A stretch of 64,000 nt of DNA from Hyphomicrobium sp. (lineage in GTDB: Bacteria; Pseudomonadota; Alphaproteobacteria; Rhizobiales; Hyphomicrobiaceae). Position 1 is the stretch's first letter. Every line of letters starts with the position of its first letter. The stretch covers positions 6,859 through 70,858 of the forward strand of contig JANLYX010000018.1 of assembly GCA_031365865.1 (NCBI GenBank), written 5' to 3'. The translations under genes were made by a program, and so were the position numbers. Below the pieces are notes generated by a model. That model had not been told where the DNA came from and did not search any database. It saw nothing but the letters and a program-made list of their open reading frames with translations. Shown here piece after piece: positions 59,508 to 62,500 of this stretch.

Positions 59508-62500
59508 ATGTCCGATAAAGCCAAAGCCCCCGAAACATCCACCGGCAAGCCAGAAGGGCGCGACTGGAGCAAGACGCTGTTCCTGCCGCAGACCGAGTTT
59601 CCGATGCGCGCCGGCTTGCCGGAGCTTGAGCCGAAGTTGCTCAAGCGCTGGGACGAGATCGGGCTTTACAAAAAGCTGCGCGCCCAATCGATGGGCCGGG
59701 TCAAGTTCACGCTGCACGATGGCCCGCCGTATGCCAACGGCAACATCCACATCGGCCATGCCCTGAATAAGATTTTGAAGGACCTGGTCGTCAAGTCGCA
59801 GCAGATGCTTGGCCACGATTCCAATTACGTGCCGGGCTGGGATTGCCACGGCCTGCCGATCGAATGGAAGATCGAGGAAGCCTATCGCGCTAAAGGAAAA
59901 GAGAAGCCGAATTTTTCAGACCCGGTGGCGATGAATGCGTTTCGCGCCGAGTGCCGCGAGTTCGCGAAACATTGGTTGAGCGTGCAGCGCGAGGAGTTCA
60001 AGCGCTTGGGCGTCGTCGGCGATTGGGATCATCCGTATTCGACGATGGATTTCCGCGCCGAGAGCATCATCGCCCGCGAGCTGATGAAATTTGCGAGCAC
60101 AGGGCAACTCTATCGCGGCTCCAAGCCGGTGATGTGGAGCGTGGTCGAGAAGACCGCGCTGGCGGAGGCCGAGATCGAGTATCAGGATTATCAGTCCGAT
60201 ATGATCTGGGTAAAGTTTCCTGTTGTTGGTTCGGTCTCTTACTTGAAAGAAAAAGACTCCAACGTCGAGACCGCGCTAGGTGCATCAGTTGTCATTTGGA
60301 CGACCACGCCCTGGACGATACCTGGCAATAGGGCAATCTCATTTTCAAAAAAGATCAGCTATGGACTATTTGTTGTTGACGAGGCACCGCCGGATAATTG
60401 GCTGAAGACAGGCGACAAGCTTGTCCTAGCCCACGAGCTTGCCGATCAGGTTTTCAAACAAGCCAAGGCCATAAAATGGCACAGGCTCGGGACTGTCAGC
60501 CCGGAACTTGCACAAATCGTCTGCGCTCATCCGCTAAATCCGTTGTCTCCGGTGATCCTAGAGTCCGGCGCAGGTTTCGGGGGCGGCTCAGACGAATGGA
60601 TCAATGCATTTGGCGGCCTCTTCCGAAATGTTCTATCGAGTAAGATTGTGGGCCATGAGGATGGCAGCGGTTGGCACACGTCAAACTTTGGCGTTCAGCC
60701 GCCTTACACCTTCCCCGTCCCGCTCCTCGATGGCGATCACGTCACCGACGACACGGGCACCGGTTTTGTCCACACCGCGCCGGGGCATGGCGCCGACGAT
60801 TACATCATCTGGACCAAGAACCAGAAAGCGCTGCGGAAACGCGGTATCGACACGACGGTGCCGTTCACCGTCGACGCCGACGGCGTCATGACGGAGGCCG
60901 CGCCCGGCTTCACCGGCAAGCGCGTGCTCAAGGAAAACGGCGACAAAGGTGACGCCAACGATGCGGTGATCAAGGCTTTGCAAGAGGCCGGCAACATCAT
61001 CGCGCGCGGACGTTTGAAGCATCAGTATCCGCACTCGTGGCGCTCGAAAAAGCCGGTGATCTTCCGCAACACGCCGCAGTGGTTCATCGCCATGGATAAG
61101 GTGCTGCACTTACCCGCCCCCCTTGTGGGGGAGGGCAAGGGAGGGGGGAACTCCGTGAAGGCTGCCGTTGGGGACTCCTCAATTGCGCGCTCCGGGATTC
61201 CCCCCACCCCTAACCCCTCCCCACAAGGGGGAGGGGGATTGAACGCGCCAACGTTGCGGCAGCTGGTGCTCGAGGAGATTACGCGCACGGAGTGGGTGCC
61301 GAAGTCGGGACAGAACCGCATCACGGGTATGATCGAATCGAAACCCGATTGGGTGGTGTCGCGGCAGCGCGCCTGGGGCGTGCCGATCACGGTGTTTCGC
61401 AATTCCGAGACCGAGCAGGTGATCCCGGGGCCCGCGCACGGTTCATCGAATGACGGCGCGTGGACAGATGAAAAAAATGCCGAGCTGATGGCGCGCATCG
61501 AAAAGGCCTTCGCGGAAAAAGGCGCCGACGTCTGGTTCGAGGCGGACGCCAAAGAGCGGTTTCTGAAAGGCCTCATTCCAGATGCGGAAATGGCGCAGTG
61601 GCAGCAGATCAAGGACGTTCTCGACGTCTGGTTCGATTCAGGGTCGACGCACGCCTTCACGCTCGAAGACCCGGTGGCCTTTCCCGGTCTCAAGGGCTTG
61701 ACGCGCCGCATCGATGGCGGCCAAGACAAGGTCATGTATTTGGAAGGCTCGGACCAGCATCGCGGCTGGTTTCATTCCTCCTTGATCGAAGCTTGTGGCA
61801 CCCGCGGCCATCCGCCCTACGATGTCGTGCTGACCCACGGCTTCGTGCTCGACGAGAAGGGTCGCAAGATGGCGAAATCGGACGGCAACGTCGTCGCGCC
61901 GCAGGCGGTCATCAAGGAATCGGGTGCCGACATTTTGCGCTTGTGGGTGGCGTCATCGGATTATTCGGATGACCTGCAGATTGGTCCGACGGTTTTGAAA
62001 ACGTTCAGCGAGACCTATCGCAAACTGCGCAACACCTTGCGCTGGATGCTCGGCGCGCTGGCGCATTTCAAGCCCGGCGATGAAATCGCAGTGGCCAAGA
62101 TGCCGGAGCTAGAACGGCTGATGTTGCATCGTCTCGCCGAACTCGATCCCGAAATCCGCGAGGCGTACAAAACCTATGATTATCGCAAGGTTGTTGGGCT
62201 GTTGTCGCAGTTCATGAACACCGAATTGTCGGCGTTCTATTTCGACATCCGCAAGGACACGCTGTATTGCGATGCGCCGTCGAGCGTGAAGCGCAAGGCC
62301 GCGCTGACCGTCATTGATAGGCTGTGCGACGCCTTGATCAAATGGCTAGCGCCGATTTTGTCATTCACGGCTGAGGAAGCGTGGATGCTGTACAAACCCA
62401 ACGACAGCGAGAGCGTGCATTTGCTGCCGTTTCCTGAAATCCCCCACAAGTGGCGCGACGATAATCTCGCTGGCAAGTGGGACCGCGTGCGGGCCGTCCG

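Follow-up and report, generated by a model that had tools for sequence, protein, structure and literature searches.

The subject of this analysis is a palindromic element that lies in frame within ileS, the gene for isoleucyl-tRNA synthetase (IleRS), in a 64,000-nt window (the whole stretch of DNA analyzed; positions 6,859 to 70,858 of contig JANLYX010000018.1) of a Hyphomicrobium metagenome-assembled genome (MAG). The insert covers 132 nt of the forward strand (61107–61238), or 44 codons (H534–G577), and is built as a head-to-head pair of repeats of the BoxC/PIT/triplex-motif type (hereafter TM). Our analysis makes it quite probable that this insert is a TM pair resembling a miniature inverted-repeat transposable element (MITE), which came to lie in a permissive loop of IleRS, is translated, and is tolerated as a disordered surface loop.

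The host gene (59508–62861, forward strand; 1117 aa) was identified from the list of open reading frames (ORFs), the Pfam domains tRNA-synt_1 and Anticodon_1, and matches to IleRS entries of the PDB (E = 1e-202). It is single-copy, as tblastn of the genome otherwise retrieved only ValRS- and LeuRS-like paralogues. The source genome (G000; 3.23 Mb in 97 contigs, 59% G+C) is best represented in runs from freshwater-sediment metagenomes. Repeats were compared among 41 genomes, and the survey of IleRS covered 105 Hyphomicrobiales ileS genes, with 80 loops scored for fold energy.

Architecture and family of the ileS insert

The initial annotation, made from the letters of the window, had placed a palindromic element in frame between WFIAMDK and TLRQLV, and this is what was found, with the reading frame open throughout the 44 codons of a single-copy gene. 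The ends of the insert were set by the genus-conserved flanks KPL...GHNAP; compared with the 8–13 aa of other Hyphomicrobiales, the loop has grown by ~40 aa. The segment from QWFIAMDK to TLRQLV contains an inverted repeat, the two 42-nt arms of which (61113–61154 and 61195–61236) are 76% complementary and separated by 40 nt. A regex scan located a TM(+) repeat in the left arm (61113–61148, forward strand; CCCGCCCCCC-TTGT-GGGGGAGGG-CAA-GGGAGGGGGG), laid out as a pyrimidine block, a loop, a purine block, a 3-nt loop and a mirror purine block, and the right arm holds a TM(-) repeat (61200–61237), which reads CCCCCTCCCCC-TTGT-GGGGAGGGG-TTA-GGGGTGGGGGG on the minus strand and matches the family consensus. 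The 51-nt spacer of the pair (61149–61199, forward strand) is weakly conserved, and its ends prolong the inverted repeat (AATCCCGGAG-type). The 161-nt RNA of the insert region folds at -97.9 kcal/mol, compared with -71.4 +/- 5.0 kcal/mol for 200 shuffled sequences, none of which was as good (z = -5.3). An Rfam scan of positions 58000–64000 gave no family match, just sub-threshold miRNA-like hits on the hairpin.

In an AlphaFold2 model of IleRS (63-sequence alignment; mean predicted local distance difference test, pLDDT, of 79.5), residues 538–577 of the insert are coil with pLDDT < 50, and a confident helix (583–593) follows directly. The solved IleRS 8C9E has two residues at this loop, with query residue 529 aligned to chain residue 415 and query residue 583 to chain residue 418. 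Together, the model and the two-residue turn of 8C9E suggest that the insert is surface-exposed and disordered. In addition, the insert is probably translated, because ileS is an essential, single-copy gene whose frame is conserved.

G006, an independent MAG of another species, carries this element at the identical codon and shares its private left-arm variant, which among the 41 genomes is restricted to the ileS genes of G000 and G006. Moreover, a Logan contig of 113 nt confirms the interior of the element together with its unique spacer (61113–61219, 99% identity).

The arms belong to a dispersed repeat family. The right arm recurs at ~34 loci in G000 (blastn), ~15 of which are full inverted pairs of 120–135 bp, and alignment of 15 copies showed conserved arms and loosely conserved spacers. 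A strict TM pattern gave 23 matches in G000 and none for a reversed-pattern control, with up to 37 matches in relatives. As many G000 contigs end in TM copies, the true copy number is higher, and the TM repeat limits the assembly. Intergenic copies have lengths in any residue class modulo 3. A typical arm of the family has the sequence given above for the right arm, that is, a pyrimidine block, a 4-nt loop, a complementary purine block, a 3-nt loop and a mirror purine block.

TM repeats of Escherichia coli consist of a pyrimidine block, a 3–6-nt loop, a complementary purine block, a loop of ~3 nt (TTA/CCG) and a mirror purine block; 23 copies are known there, always intergenic, and no link to a mobile element was found (Holder et al. 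2015 NAR 43:10126, PMC4666352, which also cites the earlier BoxC/PIT/TM work of Bergler 1992 and Hoyne/Maher 2000). Both ileS arms show this three-block layout when compared with the published consensus, TTA/CCG second-loop types included, and the G000 repeats are likewise dispersed, conserved and multi-copy. The exact blocks of the E. coli repeat (TMECO) are absent, with CCCCTCCCC/GGGGAGGGG here vs CCCTCNCCC/GGGNGAGGG, and the G000 copies are not confined to intergenic DNA, as at least six lie inside conserved ORFs. Judged by these blocks, the G000 repeats are a related subfamily, not TMECO itself. The GTAG/CGTC tag of tagged repetitive extragenic palindromic (REP) sequences was not found in the aligned copies either, the arms ending in ...TTACCCGCC / GGGGGATTG.

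In-frame copies in other genes and the IleRS loop

The initial annotation had advised scanning other ORFs for peptides of the PNPSPQGGG type. The scan was productive, since no fewer than five additional conserved genes of G000, and three of relatives, contain the same family in frame. In G000, in-frame TM copies occur in Nnr, in the linker between the YjeF_N and kinase domains (contig C21), in MazG (C81), in the error-prone polymerase DnaE2 (C84), where a PSGI(L/P)PTA unit is tripled, in the MutL linker (C75:77107-77291, ~6.3 kb past the window end) and in a DUF815 ATPase (C46); in TatD (C54), a copy forms the C-terminal tail. Among relatives, ThiC carries a family insert at one site in three species, Nnr of G006 carries one in the same linker as in G000 but in reversed orientation, and MnmE carries another. 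Two peptide faces recur, namely ...SWGRPGGGES... and its reverse-strand counterpart ending ...SPPPGLPHKGGG. Thus, as in Rickettsia palindromic elements (RPEs), copies of one palindromic repeat are spread over intergenic DNA and the reading frames of several conserved genes that are unrelated to each other. The proposal that the ileS insert is an RPE-like, repeat-driven gain of protein sequence accordingly held: the element belongs to a dispersed family that is in frame elsewhere, it preserves the frame, and orthologues outside the lineage lack it.

The candidates dropped from this list were ORFs of 468 aa and 497 aa over copies on C80 and C66, which have no Pfam domain, and QueA of G007, in which the spanning ORF is interrupted by a stop. 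In two species (G000 C21:75-176; G007 L120), a RimK-like ATP-grasp ORF also has a TM pair at its 5' end, open in frame, which is either translated or upstream of the true start. Beyond its linker copy, the mutL frame continues into long stretches of G and of C, where the contig ends.

The IleRS loop itself is a recurrent landing site with turnover, and an order-wide hotspot. After QWFIAMD, the loop measures 8–18 aa in other families of the order and 8–13 aa in most Hyphomicrobiales. Fold-energy density was below -0.45 kcal/mol/nt in 43 of the 80 sampled loops (ileS background -0.33, 1st percentile -0.51), a share that is not unbiased because the sample was picked by similarity to the query; all other variable IleRS sites together hold 7 hairpin-type inserts. 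The occupants belong to unrelated families, including TM pairs, CCCTCTCCCC-type TMs, the hairpin hpA, and Bradyrhizobiaceae-type repeats of Pseudolabrys and Variibacter. All loops examined, at lengths of 8–107 codons, are stop-free and in frame; they represent 20 or more independent events and come from over 100 genomes. We attribute the hotspot to permissiveness of the loop, and resident hairpins possibly attract further hairpin elements. In G018, the 107-aa insert (L006) also contains seven tandem 21-nt units encoding GRGNDAS(E/K) beside hairpin repeats.

The hairpin hpA (41 nt; GCGCTCGGCG-GCCGG-CTCCCC-GAA-GGGGAG-T-CGCCGAGCGC) occupies most Hyphomicrobium ileS loops, in both orientations. 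It is a genus-specific dispersed repeat, with 1–19 copies in 22 of 25 Hyphomicrobium genomes and none in 16 other genera; its presence as a mere coincidence driven by the peptide was rejected on account of this dispersal. Over 15 species, 9 of the 16 pairs of its stem show compensatory double changes and 94.6% of cells are paired, and 0/500 shuffles were as good. The repeat is missing from G000 and G013, in which TMs occupy the loop. In the complete genomes G020, G021 and G011, the ileS loop holds hpA or another element. In the complete or near-complete genomes G011, G002 and G020, hpA (GACTCCCC-N3-GGGGAGCCGGC) is biased in strand (14:1, 15:1 and 9:1, respectively), and other genomes are balanced.

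DUF559 cassettes and further features near ileS

A candidate partner of the TM repeats was found in genes of the DUF559 family, which has a Vsr-like PD-(D/E)xK nuclease fold. In G000, one such gene (C48:207-527) lies between two TM pairs, and the whole unit (G000:C48:1-745, locus L111) has 72-nt terminal inverted repeats around it. Cassettes of the form TM(+)-DUF559-TM(-), with the same polarity as the ileS insert, are present in at least six genomes (G000:C48, G006:C126, G020, G021, G022 and G013), and the presence of TMs is associated with the presence of DUF559 across the 41 genomes (counts 19/1/6/15, Fisher p = 1.4e-5, Spearman 0.72). The ileS insert and the TM pairs thereby share terminal inverted repeats with an enzyme-encoding element, as MITEs do; DUF559, however, is a nuclease-fold domain and not a demonstrated transposase. 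Mobilization by a REP-associated tyrosine transposase (RAYT) was considered and rejected, as the sole Y1_Tnp match of G000 (C65:46721-46954) has no G/C-run motif within ~700 nt. No paper linking DUF559 to TM repeats was found in the literature searched.

A DUF559 cassette is located between maoC and ribF in G006, ~1.1 kb upstream of ileS; G000 has 12 nt, and no cassette, in the orthologous gap. TM elements thus lie on both sides of the G006 ileS as well as inside it (L152 / G006:C126:10149-10299; L151), namely the DUF559 cassette upstream of ribF, the in-frame pair and a further TM pair just downstream of ileS, and a REP of another kind (GTCATCCCGGGCGACCCCGG...) sits between ribF and ileS.

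The gap between ribF and ileS in the window holds an intergenic TM pair (59236–59368, no strand assigned), which is composed of TM(+), a spacer and TM(-). The initial annotation had likened the ileS insert to this element; the architecture is indeed the same, and the sequence is that of another subfamily (CCCTCTCCC-TTG-GGAGAGGG-T-GGGGTGAGGGGG). The loop of its TM(-) contains a nested 37-nt palindrome (59305–59341), and the outermost hairpins of the C48 unit similarly have a nested palindrome (GTGCCGAAGGCGCGCCTCCGGCAC) in the loop. From this nesting of unrelated short palindromes (59305–59341 and L111:15-45), the loops of hairpins would seem to be targets of insertion in their own right.

A second in-frame insert of ileS, 52 aa long, replaces a single Gly in the editing domain (60552–60707, forward strand) and is not related to the TM insert. 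It is unique to G000 and absent from 104 other IleRS, including those of G006 and G008. It is single-copy and has no hairpin or palindrome, with a third-position G+C content of 0.60 vs 0.75 for ileS, and it is crossed at 100% identity by Logan contigs from two runs. AlphaFold2 gave pLDDT < 50 at residues 352–395, predicting disorder. Residues 506–522 (an invariant segment) and 203–227 also have pLDDT < 50 despite strong conservation, and are probably mobile catalytic or tRNA-contacting loops, not inserts.

Competing explanations and comparison with known systems

Conservation of the arms at the nucleotide level bears on how the insert should be understood. G000 and G006 ileS are 58% identical at third positions, and 37% of the codons for the same amino acid differ, but the longest runs of identical codons are the two arms, with 16 codons from 561 (561–576) and 14 from 534 (534–547). 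The next-longest runs, of 11 codons, are catalytic motifs, and the central codons of the spacer have ~56% nucleotide identity. The chance of zero synonymous change in 30 arm codons is ~1e-6. Similarly, the ThiC inserts of G022 and G002 have 2/38 synonymous differences vs 29% gene-wide (~3e-4).

The shared insert of G000 and G006 does not follow simply from their relationship. In a loop-masked IleRS tree, G000 pairs with the hpA-bearing G008 with 99 in the Shimodaira–Hasegawa-like approximate likelihood ratio test (SH-aLRT), and G006 is not the sister of G000; forcing G000 and G006 to be monophyletic costs 27.9 log-likelihood (lnL) units, a borderline result in the approximately unbiased (AU) test (p = 0.055). 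By ribF and maoC, the three genomes are about equally distant (73–77%), so that these loci do not decide the species order. Recent recombination importing the G006 loop into G000 was rejected, as a sliding window shows no tract and the flanks differ up to the arms; on both sides of the loop, G008 is as close to G000 as G006 is, or closer. Homogenization of the arms by other genomic copies was rejected as well, because in neither genome does the left-arm variant occur outside ileS. The common insert may have arisen by vertical descent, by transfer of the element alone or by parallel insertion.

The reading that we favor is that of a non-autonomous, MITE-like palindromic element, in which two G/C-rich TM hairpins are set head-to-head around a 51-nt spacer. 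Such an element would have landed in the insertion-tolerant IleRS loop, or replaced an older hairpin repeat there, and would owe its persistence to a stop-free sequence with a length divisible by three. Transcribed and translated with ileS, it would form a Gly/Pro-rich disordered surface loop of 44 aa that the enzyme tolerates, and its mobilization may have occurred in trans through DUF559 cassettes bearing the same TM(+)...TM(-) ends. Several points weigh against this account. Translation is deduced from the gene, and the sole metatranscriptome, from soil, contains 5% of the words and tells nothing on this point. Conservation of the arms exceeds the need of a tolerated passenger, which hints at a role at the DNA or RNA level or at concerted evolution, and since G000 and G006 are not sisters in the IleRS tree, one ancestral insertion is not secure. 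Alignment with orthologues, which the initial annotation had proposed, defined the insertion (H534–G577), but no target-site duplication is visible at the ends of 15 aligned copies. No independent Logan contig crosses the junctions between the element and ileS, because the repeat breaks unitigs. As for DUF559, its link to the TMs is an association by correlation; six genomes have DUF559 without TMs, and no TM lies near the second DUF559 gene of G000.

The pattern of conservation could also be understood if the insert were a domesticated structural element, that is, a hairpin- or triplex-forming DNA or a stable mRNA hairpin kept for its function, with the peptide as a by-product. Such a function may be ribosome pausing between the N-terminal (Rossmann/editing) and C-terminal halves of the enzyme, a site for RNase or protein binding, or an effect on replication or transcription. 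The arms are the best-conserved DNA of ileS, without a synonymous change in 30 codons while the spacer diverges, and the ThiC insert repeats the pattern; furthermore, a hairpin of some kind is kept at the loop in nearly every Hyphomicrobium species, the loop is filled by another family where one is absent (as by TMs in G000 and G013, which lack hpA), and the compensatory pairing of hpA favors domestication. However, many Hyphomicrobiales, whole families included, have a plain loop of 8–13 aa without a hairpin, and the occupants of the loop are unrelated in sequence, size (20–107 aa) and orientation. The same repeats are equally conserved at intergenic sites and in other genes, so that the constraint seems to belong to the element rather than to ileS. 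Pairing may also be maintained without selection, either by exchange with other copies of the family or by template-switch correction of quasipalindromes, an established mutational mechanism. We therefore consider domestication rather unlikely, all the more as in vivo work in E. coli showed PIT/TM repeats to act neither as promoters nor as terminators, nor to block polymerase (PMC4666352).

Two further explanations would remove the insert from the protein or from the genome altogether. RNA-level removal or bypass, by splicing-like excision or translational hopping, would yield a mature IleRS without the 44 residues; its sole support is the extremely stable RNA hairpin (-97.9 kcal/mol), which joins the flanks. 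A removed segment would be expected to vary freely in length and content, yet all of the more than 100 orthologous loops are stop-free and in frame, whereas intergenic copies of the family fall in any length class modulo 3. In addition, there is no intron, ribozyme or other Rfam match, and C-terminal tails of the TatD type end at a stop inside or after the repeat. This alternative, which the initial annotation had raised, thus gained no support and seems very improbable. An assembly artefact, in which a repeat copy was mis-threaded into ileS, might be suspected in a MAG of 97 contigs, many ending in a TM repeat, with junctions crossed by no independent contig. It is hardly credible given that the element recurs at the identical codon in the G006 MAG, with an arm variant found nowhere else in the 41 genomes, that the unique spacer was recovered in a separate Logan contig, that the ileS frame is exactly preserved, and that every related species has some insert at the loop. 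For the junctions, the support lies in the identical insertion of this independent MAG of another species.

Beyond the favored reading of a translated and tolerated MITE-like pair, a broader and more speculative one can be offered tentatively. TM/BoxC repeats may be non-autonomous partners of DUF559 cassettes that home into hairpin-forming DNA, with the IleRS loop and the ThiC and Nnr linkers as standing landing pads, in which hairpin cassettes are inserted, flipped and swapped between lineages, and with arms held constant because the enzyme or the DNA structure reads them. If true, this would amount to a REP/RAYT-like system on a different enzyme. It would explain the private arm variant in the ileS genes of G000 and G006, which are not sisters in the IleRS tree, the nested palindromes in TM loops and the occurrence of hpA in both orientations, as well as the tracking of a genome's current repeat family by the content of the loop.

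In-frame insertion of palindromic repeats is, as an event, already known from RPEs and intragenic REPs. We have not found described the coding inserts of the TM class, an order-wide hotspot with turnover, arms that exceed catalytic motifs in conservation, or the partnership with DUF559, and the first three of these seem to be new. The in-frame copies widen the range of selfish DNA in proteins, hitherto Rickettsia and a small number of REP cases, to include BoxC/TM repeats of a free-living genus. One loop of an essential aminoacyl-tRNA synthetase has been re-colonized many times across an order, which would make it a natural permissive site for insertion of loops or tags. Arms that are more conserved than catalytic motifs, synonymous sites included, imply that something reads them as nucleic acid. 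The tight association of TMs with DUF559 makes testable the nature and spread of BoxC/PIT elements, a long-standing question about a repeat class known for ~30 years.

The known systems closest to this one include the RPEs, which lie in frame in housekeeping genes of Rickettsia (Ogata 2000 Science 290:347 and Ogata et al. 2002, via PMC10969869); intragenic ERIC, BOX and QMITE elements are also known (PMC10969869). As with RPEs, a dispersed palindrome of 100–150 bp is found between genes and in frame in many unrelated housekeeping genes, the added peptide fits the fold, the host genes are functional, and the element has no transposase of its own. The sequence family, however, is unrelated, the Hyphomicrobium element being G/C-rich and three-block. 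The host belongs to a free-living genus of methylotroph type and does not have a reduced intracellular genome, and in Hyphomicrobium one loop is re-used by many families and a candidate partner gene, DUF559, is present. Judged by composition and host, homology to RPE families is unlikely, and the likeness is that the element works like an RPE.

A large number of Proteobacteria have REPs inside genes, "many within replication and repair genes" (Di Nocera, De Gregorio & Rocco 2013, BMC Genomics 14:522, PMC3733652). That study, the coverage of which does not extend to Hyphomicrobium, reported a CGTC-1 REP dimer in IleRS of Erythrobacter litoralis (ELI_13550, aa 467–488) and another in DnaE2 (ELI_05390), and found REPs in genes of one category mostly at different sites, with no hotspot described (PMC3733652). 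By position alone, the REP of ELI_13550, in an IleRS of 965 aa, fits the same loop, which starts at 460–467 in orthologues of 990–1000 aa. Tagged REPs and the present repeats thus have in common in-frame dimers in alphaproteobacterial IleRS and DnaE2, and the excess of REPs in replication and repair genes compares with the hosts DnaE2, MutL and MazG here; the Hyphomicrobium arms lack the GTAG/CGTC tag and belong to another repeat class.

With the BoxC/PIT/TM repeats of E. coli, the Hyphomicrobium repeats share the three-block layout, dispersed conserved copies, some inverted ("palindromic") pairs and a tie to locally variable DNA, and they differ in lying in frame inside genes and in bracketing DUF559 genes. 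REPIN-RAYT systems (REPtrons) offer a further parallel, with inverted hairpin doublets throughout the genome, a small gene, in one or a few copies, flanked by the same repeats, and a repeat abundance that tracks the presence of this gene. In Hyphomicrobium, however, the flanked gene is a DUF559 PD-(D/E)xK nuclease and not a Y1 (IS200-like) transposase.

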